Assembly: GCA_027310965.1 (NCBI GenBank)
Contig: DAICZW010000003.1
Coordinates: forward strand, 1-38,644
DNA length: 38,644 nucleotides
Origin: a bacterium
GTDB taxonomy: Bacteria > Patescibacteriota > Minisyncoccia > UBA6257 > 2-01-FULL-56-20
Reading direction: 5' to 3'
Part shown: in pieces, positions 78 through 38,519 of the stretch
How the letters are laid out: the number at the start of each line of letters is the position of its first letter
Position numbering within the stretch: position 1 is the first letter of the stretch
The notes under the pieces: model-generated
What the model was told of the DNA's origin: nothing
The model's database searches: none
The model's input: only the letters and a program-made list of their open reading frames with translations
Translations under genes and position numbers: made by a program

Positions 78-257
78 CTATTTTCCCGTGATCTTCGCCT
101 CTTTGTGCGGCAATGTCTTGCGGCACCAATCGCAGAATTTTTTGAGCTCTATCTTCCTTTCGACCGACTTCTTATTTTTATGCGTATAATAATTCCGCCG
201 CTTGCAGACGGAGCACTTCAATACTATTAAACTGTCCGAGCGTTTTGCCTTTGCCAT
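78..257 (-). CDS. rpmG: 50S ribosomal protein L33
   Basis: 59-aa MAKAKRSDSLIVLKCSVCKRRNYYTHKNKKSVERKIELKKFCDWCRKTLPHKEAK, a typical L33 with CxxC...CxxC. I use the internal ATG at 255-257 rather than the ORF-track start at 293. Confidence 0.9.
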   Translation of the reverse strand: MAKAKRSDSLIVLKCSVCKRRNYYTHKNKKSVERKIELKKFCDWCRKTLPHKEAKITGK

Positions 258-3600: not shown

Positions 3601-4602
3601 TTATTTTCTCTTTATAGCTTTTTTAACGGCAATGACAATGCTCTTGACGTCCATATTATATTTTTCAAGAAGCTGGGCGGGCTGGCCCGACTCGCCAAAA
3701 CCGTCGCGCATGCCGACGAATTCCATCGGCACCGGATGATATTTCGCCAGAGTCTCCGCAACCGCACCGCCAAGTCCTCCCGCAATCTGATGCTCCTCGA
3801 CCGTAACGACGGCGCCGGTTTTTTTTACGCATTCGATTATTTTTCTCTCGTCAAGCGGCTTTATCGTATGGCAGTTCAGCACGATCACGCCGATCTTTTC
3901 CTTTTCAAGTTCGCGCGCGGCGGCAAGCGCGTTATAAGTGATAGCGCCGCAGACGATGATCGATACTTCCGGTTTTTTAATGCCGGCCGACGGAATCCAG
4001 AATATCTCCGCTTTCCCCGGCGCATAAGGCGTTTCAGTCGTCGTCATGACCGGCGTCTTTTCGCGCTGGAACCGCAGGTAAACCGGACCCCAGATATGCG
4101 CGGCGGCTTCGGTCGCCTTCCGCGCTTCAATGGCGTCGCACGGCACGAATACTTTCATATTCGGCATCGTCCGCATAATGGCGATATCTTCCGTAGCCTG
4201 ATGCGTTGCGCCGTCGGGTCCCACGGAAATGCCGGCATGATGCCCCGCGATTTTCACGTTCGAATCATTGTACGCAATCGTCGTCCGGATCTGTTCCCAA
4301 TTCCGTCCCGGAGAAAAAGTCGCGTACGACGCGATGAACGGGATCTTCCCGCTGATACCCAGACCCGCGGCGACGGTCGCCATATTCTGCTCCGCAACGC
4401 CAAGCTCAAAAAACCGCCCGGGAAATTTTTTGGCGAACGCTTCGGTGCGCGTCGATTCCGTAAGATCGGCGCACAACGCGACGACATTCTGATCCGCATC
4501 GCCCGCAGCCACCAAACCGTCGCCGTAACCGTCGCGCGTCGGCCTCTGTTCGGCATCGGCATCGAATAATTTCGGATTTAAATGTAATGCGGGATTAAGC
4601 AT
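3601..4602 (-). CDS. tkt: transketolase, C-terminal (pyrimidine-binding + C-terminal domain) subunit
   Basis: 333 aa with FFELGVAEQNM and the Pyr/C-terminal transketolase layout. It is encoded separately from the TPP-binding half. Confidence 0.9.
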   Translation of the reverse strand: MLNPALHLNPKLFDADAEQRPTRDGYGDGLVAAGDADQNVVALCADLTESTRTEAFAKKFPGRFFELGVAEQNMATVAAGLGISGKIPFIASYATFSPGRNWEQIRTTIAYNDSNVKIAGHHAGISVGPDGATHQATEDIAIMRTMPNMKVFVPCDAIEARKATEAAAHIWGPVYLRFQREKTPVMTTTETPYAPGKAEIFWIPSAGIKKPEVSIIVCGAITYNALAAARELEKEKIGVIVLNCHTIKPLDERKIIECVKKTGAVVTVEEHQIAGGLGGAVAETLAKYHPVPMEFVGMRDGFGESGQPAQLLEKYNMDVKSIVIAVKKAIKRK

Positions 4603-4714
4603 GCGTCGTAGTGTTATAATGTTCTAATTCTAATATTGTAATGTTCTCATGGCTGAGCGTTGATTCAGTGTTGTATTTTCACTATAACACTACACCATGA
4701 GAATATTACATCTT
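4603..4714 (-). repeat. IG-1 spacer element, copy a (fills the whole tktN-tktC spacer)
   Basis: Words TAGTGTTATAATGTTCTAAT and ATTGTAATGTTCTCATGG lie on the low-coordinate side. Their complements TATAACACTAC and CCATGAGAATATTACA lie on the high side. The core carries GAGCGTTGATTCA. Confidence 0.8.
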
Positions 4715-5575
4715 TCATTCGTGTTCGCTTTTTATCTTGCCGCCCAATGTCCGCAGTTCCTTTAAGGCATGTTCCGCCTCCCCGGGTTTGAATGTTTTTG
4801 AATGCCATAAATAATCCTTCTCCATAAAATCAACCCCTTTGCCGGCAATCGTATGCGCGATGATTGCCGTCGGCTTTTCATAGATCGCCCGCGCCTCGGC
4901 GGCCGCCGCGATAATCTGCTCGAAGCTATGCCCGTCAATCTCAAGCACGTGCCAATTGAACGATTCGTATTTTTCACGCAAAGGTTCGAGCGGCATGACG
5001 TTCTCGGTGAAGCCGTCGATCTGGATATTGTTCCGGTCAATGACCACGGTCAGATTATTCAGGCGGTTTTTGCCCGCGAACATGACCGCCTCCCACGTGT
5101 TCCCTTCTTCGTGCTCGCCGTCGGACGTGAGGCAGTAGGTCTGCCATTTCTTGGCATCCAGTTTCGCCGCAAGCGCGATGCCGATGCTCTGCGCGATGCC
5201 GGATCCCAGCGGCCCCGATGTCGTTTCGATGCCCGGCAAAGCGCCGCGATGCGGATGACCCTGCAACCGCGTGCCGAGCCGGCGCAACGTCCTCAATTCT
5301 TCAACGGGAAAATATCCCGCGTGCGCAAGCACCGCATACTGCACGGGACAGATATGGCCGTTCGAAAGAATAAGCCGGTCGCGCTCGGGCCACGCCGGAT
5401 GCTTCGGATCGTGTTTCAAAATATGGAAATAAAACGCCGCGAAAACATCCGCCATGCCAAGCGGTCCCGCGATATGGCCGGAGCCGGCGCGCGAAACCAT
5501 GGCAATCACGTCCTCACGGAGGCGATTCGCCATGAACTCGAGCGATTTCAATTTTTTTTCGGTAAGAGGCTCCAT
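4715..5575 (-). CDS. tkt: transketolase, N-terminal (TPP-binding) subunit
   Basis: 286 aa with GHIAGPLGMADV and SDGEHEEGNTWEA motifs. Ends with TGA. Confidence 0.9.
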   Translation of the reverse strand: MEPLTEKKLKSLEFMANRLREDVIAMVSRAGSGHIAGPLGMADVFAAFYFHILKHDPKHPAWPERDRLILSNGHICPVQYAVLAHAGYFPVEELRTLRRLGTRLQGHPHRGALPGIETTSGPLGSGIAQSIGIALAAKLDAKKWQTYCLTSDGEHEEGNTWEAVMFAGKNRLNNLTVVIDRNNIQIDGFTENVMPLEPLREKYESFNWHVLEIDGHSFEQIIAAAAEARAIYEKPTAIIAHTIAGKGVDFMEKDYLWHSKTFKPGEAEHALKELRTLGGKIKSEHE

Positions 5576-5660
5576 AGATGTTGTAGTGTCCTAAATGTTC
5601 TAATACTGTAATGACAGAGAGCGTTGCATTCTCACCATAACACTACAACATTACAACTCT
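5576..5660 (-). repeat. IG-1 spacer element, copy b
   Basis: ATGTTGTAGTGT (5578-5589) is perfectly complementary to ACACTACAACAT (5640-5651). The core carries GAGCGTTGCATTC. Confidence 0.8.
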
Positions 5661-6170
5661 TCATTTTTTTATGACTTGATAATGTAATTGTATCTCATTT
5701 TCCGCTATCTTTTTCGTGCCAAGCAATTTCAAACGTTTTTCAAAATCGGATCCGTTCACAAGCGATATCCCTTGGCTCAGAATAATTGGTTCAATGTCCA
5801 AATATATCTCATCGACGAGATCATCTTTCAAAAAAGAACCGTTCAAAATCGCACCTCCCGCCACGACAACATTCTCGAAATTACTTAATAATCCCAGTGC
5901 TTCTTTTGGCGAACCGGCAATACTATGTTTTTTACCGAGAGGCTCGAATGATTTATTGGAAACTATCACGACTTTGACATTCTCAAACTCTTTGAATTCC
6001 GGCTGCTTCGTAATGATATCATACGTCCGATGGCCCAAAATAACATTGCCTGCCGTCCGCACCATGGCGCTATAACTATCCCATTCTTCTTTGGAAATAA
6101 AACTGGCATCATCATCCTCCTTTGCGATAAAACCATTCACCGTTATCGCCATATAAAGAATTACTTTCAT
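5661..6170 (-). CDS. RibD_C / dihydrofolate-reductase-like family protein
   Basis: 169 aa starting MKVILYMAITVNGFIAKEDDD, with ...VVAGGAILNGSF.... The layout is typical of the YwjB/RibD C-terminal family. GC is visibly lower than in neighbouring genes. Confidence 0.7.
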   Translation of the reverse strand: MKVILYMAITVNGFIAKEDDDASFISKEEWDSYSAMVRTAGNVILGHRTYDIITKQPEFKEFENVKVVIVSNKSFEPLGKKHSIAGSPKEALGLLSNFENVVVAGGAILNGSFLKDDLVDEIYLDIEPIILSQGISLVNGSDFEKRLKLLGTKKIAENEIQLHYQVIKK

Positions 6171-6264
6171 GGTATGGATTTTAATTCTTTATTTTTACAG
6201 AAAGCGTGAATCCTCAGCCAAGCTGAGAACGACATGCGAACTTTATTACGACACTACAACATTA
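6171..6264 (-). repeat. composite spacer: REP-like hairpin (6204-6236) plus an IG-1 half element (6248-6264)
   Basis: GCGTGAATCCTCAGCcaaGCTGAGAACGACATG is followed by ACGACACTACAACATTA, which overlaps the rpe stop codon. Confidence 0.7.
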
Positions 6265-6915
6265 GAACTCTAGAACCCGCAGCGCTTCATATGCTTTCGC
6301 CGGATCGGCGCTTCCGAAAATATAGGCGCCCGATGCGATCGTATCGGCGCCGGCATCTTTCACCAATGCGGCCGTTTCGGGATTCATGCCGCCGTCCACT
6401 TCTATCATTATAGCACCTTCGCGTTTTAAAAACTTTATTTTTTCGAGTGCCGACGGATCAAACGATTGCCCCGCAGGCCCCGGACGGACAGCAAGCACCA
6501 AAAATTCCGAGAATAAACCGAGATAAGGATTTAATGCTTCAATCGGCGTATCGGGATTTGAGGCAAGCATCACCGTCGCGCCGGTTCCTTTTTCGCCGCC
6601 GGCCGCCGCCAGGATATTCCGCGCCGACGCGACGGTAATCGTTTCAACGTGCACGATGATCCGTTGCGCGCCCGCCGCGCGCCATGCCGCAATATAATCT
6701 TCGGGTCGCGCGACCATCAAATGGACCTCCTTATTGAACGGAATGCCCATCGCCGCGAACGCCGCGGGATCGTGCCATGTCGCGTGCGCCGAAAAAATAC
6801 CGTCGGTCACGTCAATATGGATCCAGTCATCGGTACGCATAAATTTTTTCGCGGCGGCGATTTTCTCTTCGACGCACGCGCGATCGGGACAGTTGATGAC
6901 GGTAATGACATCCAT
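6262..6915 (-). CDS. rpe: ribulose-phosphate 3-epimerase (diverged)
   Basis: 217 aa with IHIDVTDG, HLMV, VHVE, RPGPAGQSF and EVDGG, the TIM-barrel motif order of Rpe. Confidence 0.75.
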   Translation of the reverse strand: MDVITVINCPDRACVEEKIAAAKKFMRTDDWIHIDVTDGIFSAHATWHDPAAFAAMGIPFNKEVHLMVARPEDYIAAWRAAGAQRIIVHVETITVASARNILAAAGGEKGTGATVMLASNPDTPIEALNPYLGLFSEFLVLAVRPGPAGQSFDPSALEKIKFLKREGAIMIEVDGGMNPETAALVKDAGADTIASGAYIFGSADPAKAYEALRVLEF

Positions 6916-7008
6916 GCTTTGATGTTGTAACGATGCAATGTTCTCAATGTTGCAATGAAAAACCGCCGCTCCATCACTAAAACATTACAACACTGCAACG
7001 CTTTACGT
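6916..7008 (-). repeat. IG-1 spacer element, copy d
   Basis: GATGTTGTAACGATGCAATGTTCTCAATGTTGCAATG ... AAAACATTACAACACTGCAACG. Confidence 0.75.
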
Positions 7009-7476: not shown

Positions 7477-8508
7477 TTACAGGATTTCCGCGACTTTCTG
7501 CACATGCTTCACGAGCGTCGAAACATACCCCGCTTCGTTGTCGTACCAGGAAAACACGTTCACGAGATCGCCGTCTATGACCTTTGTGAGATCCAGACTG
7601 ACGATGGCGCCGTACGGTTCGCCGATGATATCCGATGACACCAACGGGTCGGTCGTCACTTTAAAAATTCCCTGCCAGCGCGGCGATGCGGCGGCTTCGG
7701 TGAGAATCTGGTTGATCTCTTCAACGCTCGTTTTTCGCTTCGCAAGAAACGTGATATCCGAAATGGAACCGGTGATAGTGGGAACGCGGAAAGAAACACC
7801 GTCAAAACGGCCCGCGAGCCCGGGGATCGCGCGCGTGACCGAAATCGCGGCGCCGGTCGTTTCGGGAACCGTGTTGTGAGCGGCCGCGCGGCCCTTGCGG
7901 AAATCGTGTCCGCCGCGAACGGGTCCGTCCACCAGACTTTGCGTTGCCGTGTAAGCGTGCACCGTGGAAAGCACCGCTTTCAGGATACCCGGATTTTCCG
8001 AAAGGATCTGTATAACAGGCGATGCGGAATTCGTGGTGCACGAGCCGTTCGAAGTTATCGCGCACGTTTTGAGCGCGTCCTCGTTCACACCCATGAGGAC
8101 CGTTTTGCCGGCAGGACCGTCGGCGTCTTTCGCCGGCGCCGTAATCACCACGCGTTTCGCGCCCGCCTGCACATGCACCATCGCCTTCTCGTACGATTCA
8201 AAAAGTCCGGTTGATTCGACGACAATATCGATAGCAAGATCTTTCCACGGAAGCTGCGCCGGGTCTTTGATCTGCAGGAATTTTATTTCGGCGCCGGAAA
8301 TGACAAGGTTCCCTTTCGCAAGATCGGCTTCCACCGCTTTATCGTACCGGCCGTAAGCCGTATCGTATTTCAAAAGATAGGCGAGATTTTCGAGATTGCC
8401 GAGATCGTTAATGGCGACGATCTCGAGGTTATCCGTAGCAAATGCCGATTTTAAAAATAATCTTCCGATCCGTCCGAACCCGTTTATCGCAATGCGTGTT
8501 TTTTTCAT
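7477..8508 (-). CDS. gap: type I glyceraldehyde-3-phosphate dehydrogenase
   Basis: 343 aa with INGFGRIGR, SNGSCTTNS and WYDNEAGY. Confidence 0.95.
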   Translation of the reverse strand: MKKTRIAINGFGRIGRLFLKSAFATDNLEIVAINDLGNLENLAYLLKYDTAYGRYDKAVEADLAKGNLVISGAEIKFLQIKDPAQLPWKDLAIDIVVESTGLFESYEKAMVHVQAGAKRVVITAPAKDADGPAGKTVLMGVNEDALKTCAITSNGSCTTNSASPVIQILSENPGILKAVLSTVHAYTATQSLVDGPVRGGHDFRKGRAAAHNTVPETTGAAISVTRAIPGLAGRFDGVSFRVPTITGSISDITFLAKRKTSVEEINQILTEAAASPRWQGIFKVTTDPLVSSDIIGEPYGAIVSLDLTKVIDGDLVNVFSWYDNEAGYVSTLVKHVQKVAEIL

Positions 8509-8670
8509 TGTGCTTATTTTCTTATTTTAAAATAGTATAGCATATTGAAAATATTATTACCGTCTTCAAGATCCGTTTTTCATGGCTTTCGCAATCATCC
8601 GCTTTGGGTTATCCCGTGCCGTGAATACGGAACGGATGACGACGGGAAAAGGGATGTTTGCCTTCTCTTT

Positions 8671-9219
8671 TTATGTACTTGATATTTCGACCGTATCCCC
8701 TATTTTTATATCGTCTTTCGCCACGGTGCCGGCGCTCACTTCAAGCACCGCATCAACGCCGGGCGGCGACGAATATATTTTCAATTTCCACAGCGGCGTG
8801 CCGGGCTGCGGCGCGGCGTTCTCAGCGAACCCGAGGACTTTACCCTCCCAGGTTTTGCCTTGCGAACCTTCTGAAATTTTGTTCTGAAAAATTGGGGAGG
8901 GCGAACCGCCGCCGATCCAGATCATATCCAAAGGAAAGTTCATGTCTTTCATCCAAAAATACCTGACCGTCGAAGACCCGAAAAGAAAGACCATCCCGTC
9001 GTTTTGCCCCAGACCCGCGCGAAACGACAGCCCGCGCGCCTGCTCGATTGCCGTCCGCGCAACCTCCGCGGAAAAAACCGCGCTTCCGACCGTCACCCGC
9101 GCCGCAGGAAGCGGCGGATTTTCCTGAGAAAGGACACTATGCCAAAAACCGAACACCACAAGCACTACCGCTATGAACGCAATGATGGCTATTATTATCA
9201 TAATTTTCTTTGAAGTCAT
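8671..9219 (-). CDS. DUF192-family protein with N-terminal membrane anchor
   Basis: ARGLSFR..GMVFLF..FWMKDMNFPLDMIWI...VLEVSAGT matches the DUF192 pattern. Start taken at MTSKKIMIIIAIIAFI (ATG 9217-9219). Confidence 0.7.
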   Translation of the reverse strand: MTSKKIMIIIAIIAFIAVVLVVFGFWHSVLSQENPPLPAARVTVGSAVFSAEVARTAIEQARGLSFRAGLGQNDGMVFLFGSSTVRYFWMKDMNFPLDMIWIGGGSPSPIFQNKISEGSQGKTWEGKVLGFAENAAPQPGTPLWKLKIYSSPPGVDAVLEVSAGTVAKDDIKIGDTVEISST

Positions 9220-9822: not shown

Positions 9823-10029
9823 TATATTACATAAGGAATGTGCTGAAAATAATAAAACATCTTATGGATAACTATTTAAAAATTTAATTTTCGTCATGCG
9901 AAAGAGGAAATTTATGCTTTGTCCTGAAAAATTCTTAAAGAATATATCTCGCCTCCGCAAGAACGGCCGATAAGCCATTATGACTTTTTCGAATACGTTT
10001 ACCCTCCGTCTTCATGGTGTTTCCGGCGG

Positions 10030-12855
10030 TCATTGACTCGCGGCGGCGGTCGTGGATGACGCCGCATCGGGCAATGCCCACGTCGACATAGTCGGTGCGG
10101 AAACATTGCCGAAATAATCCACGGCACGGACGCCGATATAATAAGTATTCGCAGGATCAATTGCGCAGAAACCCAAACGGATACTGCCGACCGATTGCCA
10201 ATGCAACGCATCAAGCGTCGGCGATGTTCCGCAATTGATCTCGTAAGCGAGCGACGAAGAAGCTGTATCCGGATCGGTGGAAGCCGACCATGAAAGATCC
10301 AATTGTCCGGTCGCGGGATCGACGGAGGTCACAATATCGGTCGGCGGGCTCGGCGGCATATGCGGCGGAAAATTCGGGATGAACACCCATGAAAGATATG
10401 GATAAAAAGAATAGGTATACGGAACCTTGCCGGAGCCATAAACGAACGCGTTCCACATCGCCGTGCCGGTCGCCATCGTCCCCTTCAAAATAACACTCCG
10501 GTTCTGGCAACCCTGATAAGTATAGAGGCGATAATATTTGTTCGGCTGAAGCGCGATATTCAGGCCGCCGACCGTAACCTTCGTATTGGCATGTATAAAC
10601 GGCGCATTGTCCGAAATGGTAAATTGCCGATTAAGCTTGGTATAGCCGGGATCGAGGAATTCCCCAATCCAAAGACTCGATTCGAAAAAAAACGGATCGT
10701 CTATATAACCTTCAAACGTAAGCGAGCGGATCGTGCCATAAAATCCAGTGCCGAGATCGTACCAGTTGTCGTCGTAATGGCTCCCGTGCGAATCGCTGCC
10801 GTCAACTGCCTGGACCGTCGTGGACCAATCCGGTATGGCGACCGTCGCAGTCGCAAATGAAATATCTCCCGCAACGTCAACGGCACGGATACCAAAATAA
10901 TAATCATGGCCGTCCGCAGAGACAGGATATGAAAACGAAGTCGACGTGCCAGTCCATAATGGCGGCGTACCGGATGCAATAACGTCAGTAATAGTTCCAG
11001 AAGCGGTTTGCGGCGAGCTTGTCGATGCGGCATCCAGATCGAAAACAGAGTAAACGATACCATCCGATGATCCGCTCGCATCCTGCGGCGCGGCCCATAT
11101 AAAATCAATCGCGAGCGTGCTCGAATTGAAAACGGCGATTGCATCCATGCCGGCGACGTGCGACGGCGGCGCGAAAACAAAAACGGGGGTGGGCGGTACC
11201 GCAGAGGAAGTCGCATCCGATAATTGAGTCGGCGATGCGGATGATGATACGACGGAATCAATACTGGAAGTTGCCGTTGATGTCGAAGCGGATGCGGTTG
11301 ACGGCGATGACGTGGAAATTGCATCCGTAATCGAAGAAAAACCGTCAACTAAAGTGGATGATGCCGTGGAAGTCGTGATAACCAACGTTGTCGACGATGC
11401 AACGGACGATACCGCGGTGGTGGTCGCAACGCCGATATCGGCAATAATAATAGTAGAAGAAGTATTGTCGGTTGACGCTGCGGATGTCGATGTTGCACTG
11501 TAATCACTGACCGTATCCGTGCCCGCGGAAGAAGACGCATCCTCGGCTTGCCCAATCGTTCCGGATGGCGCAGCCGATGCCAACGCAGAAGAATCTTCCG
11601 GCGATGCGGCAGAAAAAGACGGCGGCGCGCTCGTTATCGTCGCTGAAACGCCGCCTGTCGGAACAGTTTGCCCGCTTGTGGCGAGCGAAGTCGAACCATT
11701 GCCGCCGCCGGACGAATCGGAAATATCCTGCGTAGTCGATGAAACGATATCCGAGGAATAATTTTGCGACGACAAACCGTTCGACGCGGCACTGTCCGGA
11801 TCTAAACTTAAAACCGATGAATTCGCGGCCGGGGAATTTGCCGGAGTGAATGCGCTATCGATGCCGCTTGGCGCAGAGGACAATCCTGCGCCGTTATTCA
11901 AACTCTCCGCGCTTGAACTCTCCGTAGTCGCATCAAAAATATTATTTCCATCCGAAGATCGGCCCGTTGAAAACGAAAATAAAGAGGAATTCTTCGTGAT
12001 AATTTGCGATTGCCCCTTTGAATTTTCCCCTGAAAAATCCCGAGAGGAAGGCGCCGGCGCGGACGACGTTCCGGAAATAGAAGAAGCGCCGATGCTTTCG
12101 TATGATGACGTCGCGCCACTTATTAATCCGTTATCGGCCGCCCTATTGCTGTCCGATCCGACACCGCCTGCCGCGCCGAACAAATTACCGGCGGCTTGCG
12201 CCATGATCGCGCCGATATCACCCAAAAGGCCCGTGTCCGGCGCGCCGTTGTCCGAAACATACCGCGCTTCTTCCTTTATACCGGTATAGCCGGAAATCGG
12301 CTCGAAATTATGCGCCGAAAAACTTCCATCGGCATTTTTATCGTACATCGCGAAATGAAGATGCGCGCCGGGATGCTCCGCGCATGCAGTTCCCATTACA
12401 AGGCCGGTATCGCCGAGTTTTCCCAAAACGGCACCCGTTTTTACCGCATCGCCGTCGTTCACCGCAATGCTTCCCTGGATAAGATGCGCATAGCGGCTCA
12501 CGATATTGCCGTCGCCCGCCACAAGAATTTCCGTGCCATAGCCCCCGTTATACCCTGCTTCTTCGACAATCCACGCTTTTCCCGGCGCCGCCGCAAGAAT
12601 ATTTTTGCCGTAAGTATTACAGCCGTCCTGCGTGAAATCCGCCGCATAAGCGTCTTTATGAATGTGCGTCGGAGGACTGTCATACCCCTGCGTCACGACA
12701 AAACTTTGCTTGTTTTCATAGGGAAGCTTCGCCGCAAACGATTGCGCCACTGCATACCGCACGCAAAATACCGGTAGCGCGGCAAGGGCGGCCATAAAAA
12801 ACATGGCTATAAATTTCTTATTTCGACGAACGAGCGGCGCTATGGTCACCGACAT
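10030..12855 (-). CDS. large secreted M23 metallopeptidase with ~330-aa Ser/Thr/Ala-rich linker and FN3-like C-terminal repeats
   Basis: N-terminal signal/anchor RRNKKFIAMFFMAALAAL. M23 motifs HIHKD and GAHLHF. Two FN3-like modules end in YYFGIRAVD / YYIGVRAVD. Start taken at ATG 12853-12855 so as not to overlap the upstream gene. Confidence 0.8.
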   Translation of the reverse strand: MSVTIAPLVRRNKKFIAMFFMAALAALPVFCVRYAVAQSFAAKLPYENKQSFVVTQGYDSPPTHIHKDAYAADFTQDGCNTYGKNILAAAPGKAWIVEEAGYNGGYGTEILVAGDGNIVSRYAHLIQGSIAVNDGDAVKTGAVLGKLGDTGLVMGTACAEHPGAHLHFAMYDKNADGSFSAHNFEPISGYTGIKEEARYVSDNGAPDTGLLGDIGAIMAQAAGNLFGAAGGVGSDSNRAADNGLISGATSSYESIGASSISGTSSAPAPSSRDFSGENSKGQSQIITKNSSLFSFSTGRSSDGNNIFDATTESSSAESLNNGAGLSSAPSGIDSAFTPANSPAANSSVLSLDPDSAASNGLSSQNYSSDIVSSTTQDISDSSGGGNGSTSLATSGQTVPTGGVSATITSAPPSFSAASPEDSSALASAAPSGTIGQAEDASSSAGTDTVSDYSATSTSAASTDNTSSTIIIADIGVATTTAVSSVASSTTLVITTSTASSTLVDGFSSITDAISTSSPSTASASTSTATSSIDSVVSSSASPTQLSDATSSAVPPTPVFVFAPPSHVAGMDAIAVFNSSTLAIDFIWAAPQDASGSSDGIVYSVFDLDAASTSSPQTASGTITDVIASGTPPLWTGTSTSFSYPVSADGHDYYFGIRAVDVAGDISFATATVAIPDWSTTVQAVDGSDSHGSHYDDNWYDLGTGFYGTIRSLTFEGYIDDPFFFESSLWIGEFLDPGYTKLNRQFTISDNAPFIHANTKVTVGGLNIALQPNKYYRLYTYQGCQNRSVILKGTMATGTAMWNAFVYGSGKVPYTYSFYPYLSWVFIPNFPPHMPPSPPTDIVTSVDPATGQLDLSWSASTDPDTASSSLAYEINCGTSPTLDALHWQSVGSIRLGFCAIDPANTYYIGVRAVDYFGNVSAPTMSTWALPDAASSTTAAASQ

Positions 12856-13558: not shown

Positions 13559-13702
13559 GAAAATATTTTTATTGGTTATTTTTCTTTCATTCTATGCCGC
13601 CGCGCATTAAATTTTCTTTAAAGAATTTATGCGGGGACAACTGAGAAGCGTTGATTCAAAACCGCCCTTGAATGGCCGGTCGACCTCAACGCTCATCACG
13701 GA

Positions 13703-15643: not shown

Positions 15644-15813
15644 ATAGGACTTACGCGTTTGAAAAAATATTTTAAAAACGTCAGATGTTTCAAACCGCAA
15701 GGGCCTGGCCAATTACTTCGTTATTTTCCTGCGGTTTTCATCGCCGTAGTCGGACTACGGCTCCCAAAATCCTCGGAAAATGCCTCGTACTTGGCCAAGC
15801 GCATAAGTCCTAT
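15644..15813 (+). repeat. ~170-nt terminally inverted, hairpin-rich element (MITE-like), copy A
   Basis: The termini ATAGGACTTACGCG ... GCGCATAAGTCCTAT are inverted repeats. The central palindrome is CCGTAGTCGGACTACGG. The copy aligns along its length with copies at 18327-18492 and 29423-29587. Confidence 0.8.
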
Positions 15814-18323: not shown

Positions 18324-18329
18324 TTTATA
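18324..18329 (-). promoter_or_regulatory. -10-like TATAAA, 6 nt before the aspS start, straddling the terminus of element copy B
   Basis: The minus strand reads GTCCTATAAA-attgtc-ATG. Confidence 0.3.
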
Positions 18330-18492
18330 GGACTTACGCACTTGTGCCGAGTACGAGGCATTTTCCGATTATTTTCCGAGACGTAGTCCGACTACGGCGA
18401 TGAAAATAACCGGAAAATAACGAAGGAATCGGCCAAGCCGTTTCGGTTTGATATATTTTCTTATGATTTTTTTTCAAATGCGTATGTCCTAT
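18327..18492 (-). repeat. ~170-nt terminally inverted element, copy B (inverted relative to A and C)
   Basis: ATAGGACTTACGCAC ... GCGTATGTCCTAT. Its reverse complement aligns with copies A and C. It fills the aspS-mgtC divergent spacer. Confidence 0.8.
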
Positions 18493-18517
18493 GGTATTAT
18501 GGTATCATACTATTACA

Positions 18518-19000
18518 ATGCTCACCTTTTCACAAATGATGATCCGGTTCGCGGTCGCGCTCGTTCTCGGCGCGCTCTTGGGTCTTGAACGCGAGCTCGT
18601 CGGCAAAGAAGCCGGCATCCGCACCGAAATGCTCGTCGCGGGCGGCGCAACAATTTTCACAATGGTCGGCCTCATACTTCCTTATATCGTCTCCGTAAAT
18701 ACCGGCAATACCGCCGACGTCATTGCCAGAAACAGCGGGTTTCTTCAGGTTATCGCGAATATCGTCGTCGGTATCGGATTCCTCGGCGCGGGGCTCATCA
18801 TTAAAACCGACAACCGGTCACGCGGCATCACGACCGCCGCGCTCGTCTGGACGACGGCCGCCATAGGCGTCCTTATTGGCATCGGCATGATAACTTTCGG
18901 CATAGTCGCCGCCGTAATCATAACCGGACTGCTTTACCTGCTCCGCGGATTGGACATTGCGAAAGAAGCGGAAGAAATGGCGCGCGAAAACGCCCGTTGA
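18518..19000 (+). CDS. mgtC: MgtC/SapB-family membrane protein
   Basis: ALVLGALLGLERELVGKEAGIRT signature with 4-5 TM helices. Start at ATG 18518, because the track start lies in the repeat. Confidence 0.75.
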   Translation: MLTFSQMMIRFAVALVLGALLGLERELVGKEAGIRTEMLVAGGATIFTMVGLILPYIVSVNTGNTADVIARNSGFLQVIANIVVGIGFLGAGLIIKTDNRSRGITTAALVWTTAAIGVLIGIGMITFGIVAAVIITGLLYLLRGLDIAKEAEEMARENAR

Positions 19001-19906: not shown

Positions 19907-20002
19907 TGCTTAAATGTTGTAATGTTTTGTAATGTTATAGCGTTGTAATGAAAATTCATCGCACTATTAAAGACACTCCGACACTATAAAACGCATCGCA
20001 CT
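19907..20002 (+). repeat. IG-1 spacer element, copy e (plus-strand orientation)
   Basis: After the def stop: AATGTTGTAATGTTTTGTAATGTTATAGCGTTGTAATG. Before the fmt ATG: GACACTCCGACACTATAAAACGCATCGCACT. Confidence 0.7.
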
Positions 20003-20869: not shown

Positions 20870-20890
20870 AAAACCTTAAAACAGTATTTT

Positions 20891-20920
20891 CTGTCATCCT
20901 CGCGGAGGCGAGGATCCATG
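20891..20920 (+). repeat. REP-like short hairpin element
   Basis: CTGTC-ATCCTCGC-ggag-GCGAGGAT-CCATG. Confidence 0.65.
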
Positions 20921-20992
20921 CTTTGAAAAAAAACTGGGATATGTCATCGTCCGTCACTGCCGACAATGACAGCAAAAAATTCTCTAAAACAT

Positions 20993-27513: not shown

Positions 27514-27631
27514 AAAAAGAAGAGATAACTCATTACTTATAATTAAGCATTGCATTCCCTCCGTCGTCCCCTCACACTGCCTCCCTTTTTTTCCATCTTT
27601 TTCTTAATCGCTCATTGTTTTTCCTTTCGGG

Positions 27632-27764
27632 TCTGTCATCTCGGAATTTTGAGGCTTTGCGAAAAATATCCGAGATCCAGGATGAACCCTCTTCATTATT
27701 CAATTCAAATTAATCCTGGATTCCAGATAAACACTCGAAAACGCGCGTTTTCCGAAATGACAGA
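27632..27764. repeat. 133-nt element bounded by 15-nt inverted repeats, with three internal hairpins
   Basis: TCTGTCATCTCGGAA (27632-27646) pairs with TTCCGAAATGACAGA (27750-27764), 14 of 15. Internal pairs are ATCTCGGA/TCCGAGAT, ATCCAGGAT/ATCCTGGAT and GAAAACGC|GCGTTTTC. Confidence 0.65.
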
Positions 27765-27803
27765 AAGAGAATAATGTTAATGAACATCATCGCTGTTTCT
27801 TAA

Positions 27804-27835
27804 AGCGTGAATCCTCGCCCAGGTCGAGAACAATG
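27804..27835 (-). repeat. REP-like short hairpin element
   Basis: The plus strand reads AGCGTGAATCCTCGCccaggtCGAGAACAATG, the same flanks as the copy at 6204-6236. Confidence 0.55.
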
Positions 27836-27968
27836 AAATGAACTGGCGCATCGAATCAATATATGCTATTCTATAAATAGAATTTGGGTGCGGGAATTCT
27901 GGAAAATTTCGTCTTTTTTAGACGGATTCCGGCCAGTTCTTTAACAACTTAATAAGGAGGTGAGAAAA

Positions 27969-28010
27969 ATGAAACAGAAGCGGATAAGACCGCCGAAAAA
28001 TCCATTTTAA
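27969..28010 (+). CDS. mini-ORF 1 (13 codons, MKQKRIRPPKNPF) behind a perfect Shine-Dalgarno
   Basis: TAAGGAGGTGA (27953-27963) is an 11-nt complement of the canonical 16S 3' tail. There are 8 nt from GGAGG to the ATG. Confidence 0.4.
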   Translation: MKQKRIRPPKNPF

Positions 28011-28120
28011 GGGAAAAGAAGTCAGTGTTACAATGTAAAAACGCCTCGCACTTAGGCGTGCGGCTGGGAAATTCTCCTATTTAATGATTTTTAAAAAAAT
28101 TTAAAAAGGAGGTGTTTACC

Positions 28121-28150
28121 ATGAGAGGTTTAGATGAAAGAGAATTATAA
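28121..28150 (+). CDS. mini-ORF 2 (9 codons, MRGLDEREL) behind a strong Shine-Dalgarno
   Basis: AAGGAGGTG (28106-28114) has the same 8-nt spacing to the ATG. The stop codon is embedded in the 18-nt palindrome AGAGAATTA|TAATTCTCT (28139-28156). Confidence 0.35.
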   Translation: MRGLDEREL

Positions 28151-28168
28151 TTCTCTTTCCAAAACATA

Positions 28169-28207
28169 ACGACACTTCACAATGAAGCGTCGTTTTTTAT
28201 TTTTTTA
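28169..28207 (+). terminator. intrinsic terminator closing the mini-ORF unit
   Basis: Interrupted stem ACGAC-a-CTTCA / TGAAG-c-GTCGT is followed by TTTTTTATTTTTTT. Confidence 0.6.
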
Positions 28208-28235
28208 ATAACAGCATCAAAAACCGCCGTCAAAA

Positions 28236-29422: not shown

Positions 29423-29587
29423 ATAGGACCTACGCATTTGAAAAAAATATAAGAAAATATCTTAAACCGCAGCGGACAAGGCCCGTCCCTTCGTTATTTT
29501 CCGATTATTTTCATCGCCGCAGCCGGACTACATCCCGGAAAATAACCGGAAAATGCCCCGTACCCGGCGCACGTGCGTACGTCCTAA
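29423..29587 (+). repeat. ~170-nt terminally inverted element, copy C
   Basis: ATAGGACCTACGCATTTGAAAAAAA ... CACGTGCGTACGTCCTAA. It is collinear with copy A and ends 10 nt before the tig ATG. Confidence 0.8.
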
Positions 29588-29597
29588 AAATAAATTT

Positions 29598-32371: not shown

Positions 32372-34093
32372 TCATTCTTCCTCCGTTATGCGGATTACTT
32401 CTTCTATGGAAACCAATCCTTCAAGCGCCTTTATGACGCCGTCCTGGCGCAACGTGAGCATACCCTGGTTTTTCGCTTCTTTCGTTATTTTTTGCGCGGT
32501 CGGACCGGCATTGATGACGTCTTCAAGCGCGGGCGTCATATGGAAAACTTCGAAGATCGCTTCCCTTCCAAGAATACCCCTTCCTTTGCAGATTTCGCAT
32601 CCCTTCGCGCGCGTGATCTTGTACGGTTCCGGATATTTTGCGCGGACATCTTCCGGAAGTTCCGCGAGCGTCCTTCGGATGACGTCCTGCATATTCTGCG
32701 GCGCCGGTTCAGCCGCCTTGCAGTTGTAACACAGAAGTCCGACGAGCCGCTGGGATATCATAAGGTTCAAAGAAACCGGCAGAAGGAACGGCTCCACTTT
32801 CATGTCGATAAGGCGCGGGATGACGCCGGCGGCATTGTTGGTGTGCAGCGTCGAAAGGACGACGTGCCCCGTAAGCGCCGCCTGCACGGCAAGTCCGGCG
32901 GTCTCCGCATCGCGGATCTCGCCGACCATGACGACATCCGGATCCTGCCGCAATATTTCGCGCAATCCCGCCGCGAAGTCGTAGCCGATCTCCGGCCTCA
33001 CCTGCGACTGGTTGACGCCCGCGACAAAATATTCGACGGGGTCTTCCAAGCTCACGATATTCCTGCTCTCATTGTTCAATGTCTGGAGAAAAGCGTACAG
33101 CGTCGTCGTCTTGCCGGAACCCGTCGGTCCCGTTATAAGAATCATGCCGTACGGCTTCGCAAGCCCTTCTTTCACAATCTCAAGATTCCGGTAAAGGAAC
33201 TGGAGGTTGTCGAAACTCTTCAACCCCGTCGACGGATCAAGCACGCGGAGGGCGACTTTTTCGCCGAGCGGCGTCGGAAAGGTCGCCACGCGGAAATCGA
33301 TGTCTTTATTCAATATTTTTGCGCGGAACCGGCCGTCCTGCGGCACTCTCGTTTCGTCGATTTTTAAACTTGAAATGACTTTAATGCGCGAGACAACGGG
33401 CTGGGCGAGTTCGATGGGAAGCGATGCAACCTGTTTCAGTTCGCCATCGATCCTGAAACGGACACGCAATGTTTTTTCCTGCGGTTCGATGTGGATATCG
33501 GACGCGCGGCCCTGCACCGCTTCACGGAGCGTATCGGCGACGATTTTGACCACCGGCGCATCTTCCGCGCTTGACGCGCTTTCAAGGTTCGCCACTTTAC
33601 GGCCGCCTTCGCCTTCTTTTATATTCAATGACTGCACTGCTTTCGCAATCTCGCTGCGGTAGGGGGAATACCGCCTCAAAACATCCTGCCAGTCGCCGTA
33701 AGAAATGAGATAGACGCCCAAATTGTAACGATTCTGCCGCGCAATGAACTTCACCGCATCCTGCGCTTTCGGATCCTCCGGATGCAGCATGCCGACGATC
33801 AAAGCGTTGTTCTCGAGAGAAAGCGGAATTGTCGCATAAGTCCGCGCCGTTTCCTCCGGCACCGTGACAAAAAGTTTTTCATCGATGCTTTGCGGATCGA
33901 TCTTCTTATAAGGAACCCTTAAAACGGCGCTTTTTATTTCCGCGACCTTCGCATCATCCAAAAGCCGCTGCTTGGCTATGGTCGCCTCGAGGGGCTCTCC
34001 GCTGATGAGCGTATCTCTCTTCAGGCGGTTCGCCGCCGGCGCGTCAAGCAGTCCCTGCTTTTTTATCTGCTCCAAAAGTTCATCGTCGGTCAT
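32372..34093 (-). CDS. pilB: type IV pilus assembly ATPase PilB (GspE family)
   Basis: Walker A GPTGSGKTTT, plus GEIRD and the tetracysteine CYNCK...CEICKG. Start at ATG 34091-34093. Confidence 0.9.
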   Translation of the reverse strand: MTDDELLEQIKKQGLLDAPAANRLKRDTLISGEPLEATIAKQRLLDDAKVAEIKSAVLRVPYKKIDPQSIDEKLFVTVPEETARTYATIPLSLENNALIVGMLHPEDPKAQDAVKFIARQNRYNLGVYLISYGDWQDVLRRYSPYRSEIAKAVQSLNIKEGEGGRKVANLESASSAEDAPVVKIVADTLREAVQGRASDIHIEPQEKTLRVRFRIDGELKQVASLPIELAQPVVSRIKVISSLKIDETRVPQDGRFRAKILNKDIDFRVATFPTPLGEKVALRVLDPSTGLKSFDNLQFLYRNLEIVKEGLAKPYGMILITGPTGSGKTTTLYAFLQTLNNESRNIVSLEDPVEYFVAGVNQSQVRPEIGYDFAAGLREILRQDPDVVMVGEIRDAETAGLAVQAALTGHVVLSTLHTNNAAGVIPRLIDMKVEPFLLPVSLNLMISQRLVGLLCYNCKAAEPAPQNMQDVIRRTLAELPEDVRAKYPEPYKITRAKGCEICKGRGILGREAIFEVFHMTPALEDVINAGPTAQKITKEAKNQGMLTLRQDGVIKALEGLVSIEEVIRITEEE

Positions 34094-34217
34094 GATATGA
34101 TGTTCTAATGTTGTAATAAAAAAATAAAACGCTTCATTCATCCGACGCAATTCTTATTGCGTCGTCCGCCCGAAGGAGGGAGTCCATACTTCCGATCTTT
34201 TTTCTTAATTTTTCAAA

Positions 34218-34257: not shown

Positions 34258-34294
34258 ACTTTCTTATTATTTTTTTTCAAATGCGTAAGTCCTA
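34258..34294 (-). repeat. solo left-end fragment of the ~170-nt element (copy D)
   Basis: The minus strand reads ATAGGACTTACGCATTTGAAAAAAAATAATAAGAAA, matching the first ~37 nt of copies A, B and C. It ends 2 nt from the stop of the 99-aa gene. Confidence 0.7.
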
Positions 34295-34296
34295 TT

Positions 34297-34596
34297 TTAT
34301 TGCGGAGGAATGAACGGATTACTGCGGCCGGTCGAGGACGGAACCGTCGAAGACGGAACATATTGCTTCAAAGATTGGAAAAGCGGGTTCTGTGTCACCG
34401 CCGATGCATGGATCGTGATTCCGGCAAGAGAAGTGGTCGATGCGAAATTCGCGGAAGGCGCAACGATAACCGATTCGGGTGCCGCGAAAAAAAGATAATA
34501 AACCGCCCCGACCCCGACTGCGATAAACACAAGCCATCCTATAACGCTCATAATGCTCCCGCTGCTGTTTTTTTCTTCTTCAATGACAATAGCCAT
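34297..34596 (-). CDS. small single-pass membrane protein in the pilus operon (function unknown)
   Basis: 99 aa with TM helix VIGWLVFIAVGVGAVYYLFF. It sits between the pilO-like gene and pilB. Confidence 0.6.
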   Translation of the reverse strand: MAIVIEEEKNSSGSIMSVIGWLVFIAVGVGAVYYLFFAAPESVIVAPSANFASTTSLAGITIHASAVTQNPLFQSLKQYVPSSTVPSSTGRSNPFIPPQ

Positions 34597-34684
34597 GGTG
34601 TTATATTTTAGTGTTTTAATGTTGTAATTGTTTTAACGAAAAGCTCAGCGCTCTATCGCCATAACATTACAACATGAGAACTTT
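34597..34684 (-). repeat. IG-1 spacer element, copy g
   Basis: GGTGTTATATTTTAGTGTTTTAATGTTGTAATTG ... CATAACATTACAACATGAG. Confidence 0.75.
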
Positions 34685-35886: not shown

Positions 35887-35967
35887 AGAATTATATTTTG
35901 GTGTTCCGGCGTCGTAATTGCCGCAATGAAAAAATGAACACTGCAATATTATAACATTATAATCTTT
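35887..35967 (-). repeat. IG-1 spacer element, copy h (more diverged)
   Basis: TTATATTTTGGTGTTCCGGCGTCGTAATTGCCGCAATG ... AACACTGCAATATTATAACATTATAATC. Confidence 0.55.
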
Positions 35968-38426: not shown

Positions 38427-38519
38427 TAGTGTTGAAGATGTTATAGTGTTGGGTCGGTCGGGGCGATCTTGTTGTAATGCGCAAGATCATTACAACACTG
38501 CATTCTTATCGCTTCACAT
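38427..38519 (+). repeat. IG-1 spacer element, copy i, ending at the tRNA-Arg 5' end
   Basis: TAGTGTTGAAGATGTTATAGTGTTGG ... GATCTTGTTGTAATGCGCAAGATCATTACAACACTGC. Confidence 0.7.

Follow-up and report, generated by a model that had tools for sequence, protein, structure and literature searches.

TAACTGA heptamers occur as direct repeats in Beggiatoaceae, Cyanobacteria and some Bacteroidetes (MacGregor 2015, PMC4679880). A Beggiatoa-like genome has 169 direct sets of them and one inverted set, and the sets are mostly intergenic, oriented to the start codon and ending about 1 nt before it (PMC4679880). The open reading frames (ORFs) behind these repeats, which are found even in ribosomal-protein operons, mostly lack a Shine-Dalgarno (SD) sequence; close relatives of the hosts have shorter, repeat-free spacers, and S1, Csp and CsrA have been proposed as binders (PMC4679880). 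Here we describe IG-1, a family of intergenic repeats in a 38,644-nt stretch of DNA (contig DAICZW010000003.1; the whole stretch is called the window below) that is a piece of a Patescibacteria (Paceibacteria-type) metagenome-assembled genome (MAG). We think, at about even confidence, that IG-1 is a lineage-restricted family of quasi-palindromes, about 80-110 nt long and dispersed over intergenic DNA. It would behave like repetitive extragenic palindromic (REP) sequences and miniature inverted-repeat transposable elements (MITEs), with copies that were gained and are tolerated as harmless.

The TAACTGA heptamers are the closest precedent for IG-1. Both form tandem intergenic arrays of two to six or more units that are oriented to a start codon and end a few nt before it, both contain stop codons in the forward reading, and both are spread patchily across phyla. 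IG-1 differs in its unit, which is AYTAnAAC with an 8-nt period in place of a 7-nt unit, in its Patescibacteria host, and in mostly having a reverse-complement array after the upstream stop, which makes the whole a palindrome. REP sequences are defined as extragenic, palindromic, multi-copy sequences with a common consensus, 14-40 nt long in E. coli, and stop-proximal intercistronic palindromes are a known class of them (PMC12306157). A passage of the same source, citing Liang et al., has E. coli stop-proximal REPs affecting upstream translation (PMC12306157). Like REPs and bacterial interspersed mosaic elements (BIMEs), IG-1 is extragenic, follows a common consensus in multiple copies (nine in 38.6 kb), and lies at gene ends and also between operon cistrons, with many copies beginning a few nt past a stop. 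Its arms are reverse-complement arrays, but only four of the nine spacers fold better than shuffles. Complete copies of IG-1 span 81-112 nt, two to three times longer than a REP, and have A/T-rich arms of tandem octamers in place of a single GC-rich stem; GTAG occurs in some units only, and no gene for a REP-associated tyrosine transposase (RAYT) was seen in about 48 kb of the genome. An earlier note, made from the sequence of the window, correctly set IG-1 apart, by its sequence, from REP/BIME, ERIC and CRISPR elements, and no Rfam family reaches its gathering score in the window apart from three tRNAs. Its further statement that IG-1 is not recognisable as any described operon-punctuation element was too strong in view of the TAACTGA heptamers and the stop-proximal REP class. 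A literature search with the literal octamer sequences found no paper.

Other known elements share single features with IG-1. The Correia/NEMIS, ERIC/IRU and RUP elements are MITE-like inverted repeats of about 100 nt that are intergenic, near genes, co-transcribed and species-specific. As in those families, the presence of IG-1 differs between relatives; unlike them, IG-1 shows no target-site duplication, its inverted arrays have ends that vary by whole units, and its copies differ in how many internal units they have and in what order; no cognate transposase was identified. The cyanobacterial STRR sequences are tandem 7-nt intergenic units that form genome-specific families. They differ from IG-1 in unit length and sequence, and we know of no consistent stop-to-start palindromic layout among them. 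In phage T7 early mRNA, intercistronic RNase III hairpins are conserved, have evolved individually, and have been demonstrated to be cleaved. They fill spacers within one transcript, as IG-1 does, and would be the model if IG-1 were processed; IG-1 shows no structural covariation. Integron attC sites run R''(RYYYAAC)...R'(GTTRRRY) after a mobile cassette ORF and come with an integrase. We ruled them out here, where GTT... comes first and ...AAC last, the flanks are conserved core operons, and the window holds no integrase. TIGR-Tas arrays were ruled out as well: the repeats flank conserved housekeeping genes, and a gene with a Tas/Nop domain is absent. No candidate gene for a PUF-like or HutP/TRAP-like periodic RNA binder was found in the window.

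An 8-nt unit in inverted tandem arrays

The words of IG-1 form one shared intergenic vocabulary, as the earlier note had proposed. The word GTTGTAATGTT, with up to two mismatches, has 35 matches in the window against 7.1 +/- 2.8 expected, about five times the chance number, and none of 100 shuffles reaches 35. Similarly, GTAGTGTTAT, with up to one mismatch, has 6 matches against 0.5 expected. The two-unit word GTTnTArTGTT occurs at 4.44 matches/kb in non-coding DNA and 0.09/kb in coding DNA, a density about 50 times higher outside genes. The nine spacers named in the note, all present at the stated coordinates, lie between the genes for TktC, TktN, the RibD_C protein, Rpe and RpiB, between Def and Fmt, between PilM, the PilN-like gene, PilO, orf99 and PilB, and between a DUF5673 gene and a tRNA-Arg gene; IG-1 thus does occupy spacers of unrelated operons. 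Among spacers 40 nt or longer, 9 of 20 co-directional ones contain it, compared with 0 of 9 that are convergent or divergent (Fisher p=0.017).

What is new in this analysis is the make-up of the arms, each of which repeats a unit of 8 nt in tandem. At lag 8 the IG-1 spacers reach a self-identity of 0.43, compared with 0.27 for the remaining spacers, and a further peak follows at lag 16. Fifty-two units give an iterated profile, G-T-T-n-T-A-r-T, in which positions 4 and 7 are degenerate and the remaining six nearly fixed. (The A/C-rich octamers are ACAACAUU-like.) Two to four GTTnTArT units, beginning 0-14 nt past the stop, form a G/U-rich (GU) array; a core of about 20-35 nt follows, and then two to six reverse-complement AYTAnAAC units form an A/C-rich array before the AUG. 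The seven complete copies can be aligned end to end in a single layout, and the covariance model derived from these copies recovers them at 51-86 bits. The ends of the inverted arrays vary by whole units among copies.

Two details proposed earlier need narrowing. The last A/C-rich unit does end near the next start, 2-8 nt 5' of the AUG, as claimed, except that the 3' half of the copy at 19907-20002 has no A/C word above the profile threshold. A AGCGTTGATTC-like box, said to be frequent in the core, is clear in the copy at 4603-4714; its only other clear occurrence is in an unrelated spacer, 13559-13702.

Gain of IG-1 and turnover among relatives

We compared the window with 84 Patescibacteria loci (L005-L088; 80 GTDB species representatives and four metagenome relatives), which together hold 1.27 Mb outside the window. 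The IG-1 word has no match in 18 of the 20 closest TktN loci (L005-L024; 69-85% TktN identity). Four further loci (L085-L088; 86-88% TktN identity) have isolated single matches, and in the rest the word occurs at background level only. The covariance model has no match anywhere in the 1.27 Mb, so that IG-1 is absent from relatives at 78-88% TktN identity. No sister species with IG-1 at orthologous junctions was found among these representatives and relatives; the scan of sister loci that the earlier note had proposed therefore shows an element that is not conserved. Same-species sequence adds no variation. The window sequence was also found in two other NCBI MAGs (GCA_027308915.1 and GCA_027308945.1) and in Logan assemblies of SRR9320195-99, and these contigs are 99.99-100% identical to it, so there are no substitutions or indels within the species to score, and the empty sites described here are comparisons between species. 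In 9.3 kb to the left of the window (L090, same genome) there are no further copies.

The orthologous junctions in relatives are tight or differently filled. In L088 RpiB and Rpe overlap and the gap between Rpe and TktN is 1 nt; in L087 that gap is 10 nt. Junctions of the same operon hold an unrelated palindromic family of AATTTTCA/TGAAAATT arrays in L007, unrelated TCTAATTAATAA arrays in L006, and GC hairpins of the tgtcattccggcggaagccggaatccag type in L085. In L007 two of the copies (8716-8805 and 9912-10000) form a near-identical pair of about 95 nt that starts at the stop codon and loses identity exactly at the downstream ATG. We also note that the L007 element has the architecture of IG-1 with a different word. 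According to TRF, many of the genomes of the 84 loci hold 7-9-nt A/T-rich arrays of their own, often as inverted pairs in spacers (for example, L014, L020, L024, L058, L067 and L079).

A second, independent locus points the same way. The upstream region of valS in L198, a Paceibacterota or Minisyncoccia contig, has an IG-1-related element that separates a TATAAT box from the AUG of the gene. In the corresponding regions of L215-L217, whose ValRS proteins are 92, 88 and 84% identical to that of L198, the element is absent and TATAAT lies nine nt before the AUG. The valS element is thus an insertion-like gain. Because junctions in relatives are tight or differently filled, and because the valS site exists without the element, gain by insertion or expansion is indicated. 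As far as comparison between species can tell, IG-1 copies are shown to have been gained in junctions that are short in relatives, these being co-directional gene pairs or promoter-to-start sites. The short distance from TATAAT to the valS ATG in two Paceibacterota relatives (L215 1430-1464 and L216 9965-10000) also suggests that mRNAs in this group are leaderless or nearly so.

For 241 spacers of 60-170 nt in the relatives, fold z averages -2.0 where the flanking genes are co-directional, -2.0 to -2.6 where they are convergent and -0.7 where they are divergent (co-directional vs divergent, p=3e-4). It thus seems usual across the group to have structured repeats 3' of genes, in families that turn over rapidly. 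A distinct family at the same kind of junctions as IG-1 is a GC-rich hairpin, (C)TGTCATYCC...GGRATCCAG, that sits directly after stops. The window has one copy (about 20890-20925) and related Patescibacteria many, among them L006, L008 and L085 (in L085, spacers 6794-6889, 8631-8828, 9932-10000, 10862-10949 and 18579-18652). At the transketolase junction, a small DUF5671-like gene separates the two halves in L085 (10950-11291) and L087 (10933-11289); the window has only the IG-1 spacer there.

A scan of metagenomes for GTTNTAATGTTGTARTGT found at least 120 contigs, many with 8-nt periodic arrays. These contigs were chosen by the word itself, so their breadth across phyla may partly be ascertainment. 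The elements of four of them (L116, L129, L170 and L198) contain the string ACACTACAACATTA[AT]AAC, which also occurs in the window, and L116 and L198 have some proteins in common with the Patescibacteria loci, at 40-52% identity. Their elements lie upstream of valS, after serS (between serS and an aminotransferase gene), beside an ATP synthase operon, and between rplN and rplX. Another contig, L104, is Mucilaginibacter (Bacteroidota) and has (CAACnTTn)n arrays before several ATGs, beside a CCCGATAGCTATCGGG hairpin. These arrays, with which the hairpin is interleaved, lie at 4735-4770, 5179-5234, 6501-6760 and 7925-8132, one of them about 150 nt long; long (CAACnTTn)n arrays are also listed for L169 and L167.

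Orientation, folding and competing explanations

The earlier note held that the polarity of IG-1 follows transcription, pointing to plus-strand copies that are inverted relative to the minus-strand ones. However, an X...rc(X) layout, taken word by word, does not change on reverse complementation, and two-armed copies therefore read GU first and A/C last on both strands. The inverted plus-strand copies thus carry no orientation information, and only asymmetric features can. Both half copies (a GU array after the Rpe stop and an A/C array before PilB) obey the rule, for which the chance expectation is 1 in 4. In a leave-one-out test with a hidden Markov model, six of the seven complete copies score higher in the sense orientation (p=0.06), the exception being the copy before the tRNA. 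The covariance model, built from the seven copies in sense orientation, picks out related elements in other contigs that lie either way round relative to their genes: the L206 element and one L129 copy are sense, the L169 element at 2279-2375 is antisense between two plus-strand genes, and the L198 element is antisense to valS. With p=0.06 in the window and mixed orientations elsewhere, the claim of transcript orientation is therefore at best weakly supported.

A hairpin in the RNA is predicted for some spacers. Four of the nine clearly fold better than shuffles (z -4.2, -2.9, -3.5 and -5.0), although most of the fold at 34091-34163 (z -3.5) belongs to an unrelated GC hairpin. In the remaining five, z ranges from -0.1 to -1.6. 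Compensatory changes between arms, whose absence the earlier note had said would refute its reading, are not seen. Arms pair no better with their own partner (mean -20.9 kcal/mol in cis) than with those of other copies (-22.4 in trans), and the cis value is matched or bettered in 4044 of 5040 permutations. RNAalifold on seven copies gives 17 pairs at -4.6 kcal/mol with a covariation term of +1.1, which is penalising, and double changes in just 2 of the 17 pairs. Because arms pair equally well in trans and covariation is nil, the complementarity stems from the shared word, and compensation copy by copy is unsupported. Nor is there a consistent strand bias in fold energy: among the nine spacers five favour sense and four antisense, and among 65 structured co-directional spacers of relatives sense folds better in 32 and antisense in 33. 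A sense-strand G·U signature, absent from both sets, was ruled out. Measures of folding, pairing and covariation thus contain no signature of selection on an IG-1 hairpin, and they do not support the earlier note's reading of it as a coupling device.

The translational setting is that of a lineage with few SD sequences. An SD-like motif (GGAG-, GAGG- or AGGA-like) was flagged for 5 of the 37 window genes, none clearly well placed, and most leaders are G-poor. As noted earlier, the genes downstream of IG-1 lack an SD; since this holds for nearly all genes of the window, it is a property of the genome and not specific to IG-1. The GU array bears UAA or UAG every 8 nt, and a stop is met within 40 nt of entry in 22 of 27 frames in IG-1 and in 13 of 30 in control spacers (p=0.003). 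Eight of the nine copies have no ATG, GTG or TTG in their last 35 nt. Only two perfect SD motifs (AAGGAGGTG) occur in the window, at 27954-27962 and 28106-28114 (+) in the spacer 27514-28235, each 6-8 nt before a tiny ORF (MKQKRIRPPKNPF and MRGLDEREL, each followed by a stop). They recall the lone SD-bearing gene, rpsU, of Flavobacteria (PMC9976891).

With three satellite-like contigs of the scan set aside, 117 contigs were counted, and all counts refer to the matches listed. An ORF ATG follows, within -8 to +40 nt, 35 A/C-oriented arrays and 10 GT-oriented ones (p=2.5e-4); for arrays that have no partner the numbers are 21 and 10 (p=0.07). Adjacent arrays are ordered GT then AC in 15 cases and the reverse in none. 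Sampling by pattern may inflate the occurrence of the ACAACATT-like word next to start codons.

We postulate that IG-1 was gained by insertion, through some transposase, or by slippage plus conversion, that it spreads or expands as DNA, and that its copies persist since the word palindrome would be harmless from either side. Because a palindrome reads alike on both strands, the GU array is always entered first and the A/C array comes last. An entering ribosome or transcript would always meet the GU array, whose stops would reach most frames, and the next gene would always receive the A/C array, which as a leader is G-poor, contains no start codons and would resemble the native leaders of a window poor in SD sequences. 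When co-transcribed, the element could fold into a stop-to-start hairpin; if this influences coupling, mRNA stability or processing, the influence would have arisen as a side effect or been co-opted later. Several observations weigh against this account. No target-site duplication flanks the copies in the window, those in L007 or the insertion in L198, and neither the window nor the additional 9 kb contains a gene for a transposase or RAYT. The number and order of units are less uniform among copies than is typical of MITEs. The near-fixed six positions of the unit look like selection on a recognised word and unlike free decay. The confinement of the window copies to co-directional spacers, the asymmetric sense orientation kept by six of the seven complete copies, the excess of A/C arrays at ORF starts (35 vs 10), and the L007 copies that diverge exactly at the ATG are further points of this kind. 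Together, these points would fit a function in the leader better than pure passenger DNA.

One such function, which we consider unlikely, would make the A/C octamer array a translation-initiation region that replaces the SD by binding S1, a Csp-like protein or another RNA-binding protein, as was proposed for the TAACTGA repeats, with the GU array as an optional complement. Arrays that end 2-8 nt before the AUG, the near invariance of six of the eight unit positions and the bias of the 117 contigs toward ORF starts are all consistent with it, and about half of the arrays followed by an ATG (among the matches listed) have no GU partner; yet the bias of those solo arrays is only 21 vs 10, and contigs found by a word pattern may give a spread across phyla that is ascertainment bias. 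The word is present in two SD-less lineages, that of the window and Mucilaginibacter/Bacteroidota, and SD-blind ribosomes have been reported in Bacteroidia (PMC6847099, PMC7797042); TAACTGA repeats show the same geometry (PMC4679880). However, most window genes initiate without any array, the closest relatives express the same genes without one, one copy precedes a tRNA, and other Patescibacteria use different, even purine-rich, words beside the AUG. Pairing of the A/C word with the conserved 16S 'GUUGUAAA' segment or the epsilon enhancer site seems unlikely, the geometry being unfavourable. The hairpin is another candidate that we doubt to the same degree: a terminating ribosome would melt the GU arm and free the next start (coupling), or its long A/U-rich stem would be an RNase III-type site at which the polycistronic mRNA is processed and stabilised. 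A GU array that begins 0-14 nt after the stop is within reach of a terminating ribosome, the copies at 4603-4714, 6916-7008 and 34597-34684 form predicted stems of 20-30 bp with z -2.9 to -5.0, no copy in the window lies outside a co-directional spacer, spacers of this kind that span 60-170 nt in the 84 loci are as structured as convergent ones, and the E. coli REPs cited above offer a parallel. Against these stand the five of nine copies that fold no better than shuffles, the lack of any cis-specific complementarity, covariation or sense-strand advantage, the existence of half copies and of a copy before a tRNA, the L198 element, which follows a promoter where there is no upstream cistron, and the absence of IG-1 from orthologous junctions. 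We would put a bolder combination of the two as quite improbable: that tandem ACAACAUU-like octamers recruit ribosomes in place of an SD across Patescibacteria and Bacteroidota, in a logic akin to that of the TAACTGA repeats, with the GU array past the upstream stop as an anti-leader opened by the ribosome, which would tie initiation downstream to termination upstream, the whole being a portable cassette for translational coupling.

A role at the level of DNA, as inverted sites for a nucleoid protein, regulator or recombinase or as promoter or terminator elements, seems very improbable to us. Conservation lies in the word and not in the structure, the arrangement of adjacent arrays is strictly convergent (15 vs 0), and some units resemble extended -10 boxes (TGTTATAAT/TGTTATAGT). 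But arrays with A/C words only beside an AUG would fire away from the gene, sites 8 bp apart do not fall in phase with the helical turn, and the operons are functionally unrelated. Promoter-like sites of the sigma-70 type are not enriched in the element-bearing regions (8 vs 5.6 and 9 vs 6.1 expected), nor are terminator-like sites (12 vs 8.6 and 14 vs 10.8 expected). Almost none of these sites fall inside the elements, and with no enrichment over shuffles a reading as sigma-70 promoters or terminators was ruled out.

Genomes of Patescibacteria are tiny, tightly packed and usually assumed to be poor in repeats, and here one family fills nine junctions, four of them within one core carbon-metabolism operon. 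If the copies are passengers, selfish or slippage-driven DNA can inhabit essential operons and leave SD-less translation intact. Should the hairpins or A/C arrays have a function, they would be a pointer to initiation and coupling in lineages that ignore the SD rule, and the significance of IG-1 would rise sharply if A/C arrays proved to drive SD-independent initiation. IG-1 also shifts start-codon calls, as in PilB and the PilN-like gene, and likely breaks MAG assemblies.

The individual copies and other features of the window

Seven copies are on the minus strand. The first (S1, 4603..4714), between the TktN stop and the TktC AUG, is complete, with a fold of -29.2 kcal/mol (z -4.2) and a covariance-model score of 61 bits. 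Its GU array (4675-4712) reads GATGTAAT ATTCTCAT GGTGTAGT GTTATAGT, and its A/C array (4603-4650), which ends 2 nt before the AUG, reads ATGAGAAC ATTACAAT ATTAGAAT..ATTATAAC ACTACGAC. The complete copy between the RibD_C stop and the TktN AUG (S2, 5576..5660; z -0.8, 82 bits) has its GU array at 5634-5657 (GTTGTAAT GTTGTAGT GTTATGGT) and its A/C array at 5580-5612. S3 (6245..6268) is a half copy with a GU array only, GTTCTAAT GTTGTAGT GTCGTAAT, and the TAA stop of Rpe lies within its first unit; the remainder of that spacer, 6171-6244, is an unrelated GC hairpin and an A/U-rich leader. S4 (6916..7008), between the RpiB stop and the Rpe AUG, is complete (-29.8 kcal/mol, z -2.9, 83 bits), with arrays at 6976-6999 (GU) and 6924-6956 (A/C).

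In the pilus block, S5 (34094..34117) is a half copy with an A/C array only, ATTACAAC ATTAGAAC ATCATATC, and adjoins the PilB AUG at 34093. S6 (34597..34684), between the PilO stop and the orf99 AUG, is complete (-24.5 kcal/mol, z -5.0, 86 bits), with its GU array at 34661-34681 and its A/C array at 34600-34628. S7 (35887..35967; z -0.6, 68 bits) is complete and degenerate, with a GU array at 35939-35963 and a weak A/C array at 35890-35918; it lies between the PilM stop and the ATG of the PilN-like gene (35886), a start more plausible than the upstream TTG.

Two copies are on the plus strand. S8 (19907..20002; z -0.1, 65 bits), between the Def stop and the Fmt AUG, has a GU array of four units at 19916-19951, and its 3' half contains no unit above the profile threshold. 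S9 (38427..38519; 51 bits), between the stop of the DUF5673 gene and the 5' end of tRNA-Arg, is atypical, with a GU unit at 38440-38452 and an inner hairpin of GTTGTAAT (38471-38478) and ATTACAAC (38489-38496); it is the sole copy for which leave-one-out scoring favours the antisense strand.

The genes of the window include a split transketolase (TktN, 4715-5575, and TktC, 3601-4602), the RibD_C protein, Rpe, RpiB, GAPDH, Def and Fmt, a type IV pilus block (PilM, PilN-like, PilO, orf99 and PilB), and three tRNAs. The top TktN homologues carry the names Paceibacterota, Parcubacteria or Patescibacteria.

The window also contains a second, unrelated repeat of about 111 nt (GGCC..CGTTATTTTCC..CGTAGTCCGACTACGGCG..GGAAAATGCCTCGTAC) at 15685-15795, 18324-18456 and 29480-29590. 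Its copies are direct and inverted, 75-86% identical, and adjoin gene starts in long spacers. A 42-nt piece is repeated at 90% identity at 18457-18498 and 34260-34301. Lastly, a small ORF at about 78-257 (-), MAKAKRSDSLIVLKCSVCKRRNYYTHKNKKSVERKIELKKFCDWCRKTLPHKEAKITGK, resembles ribosomal protein L33 by eye.

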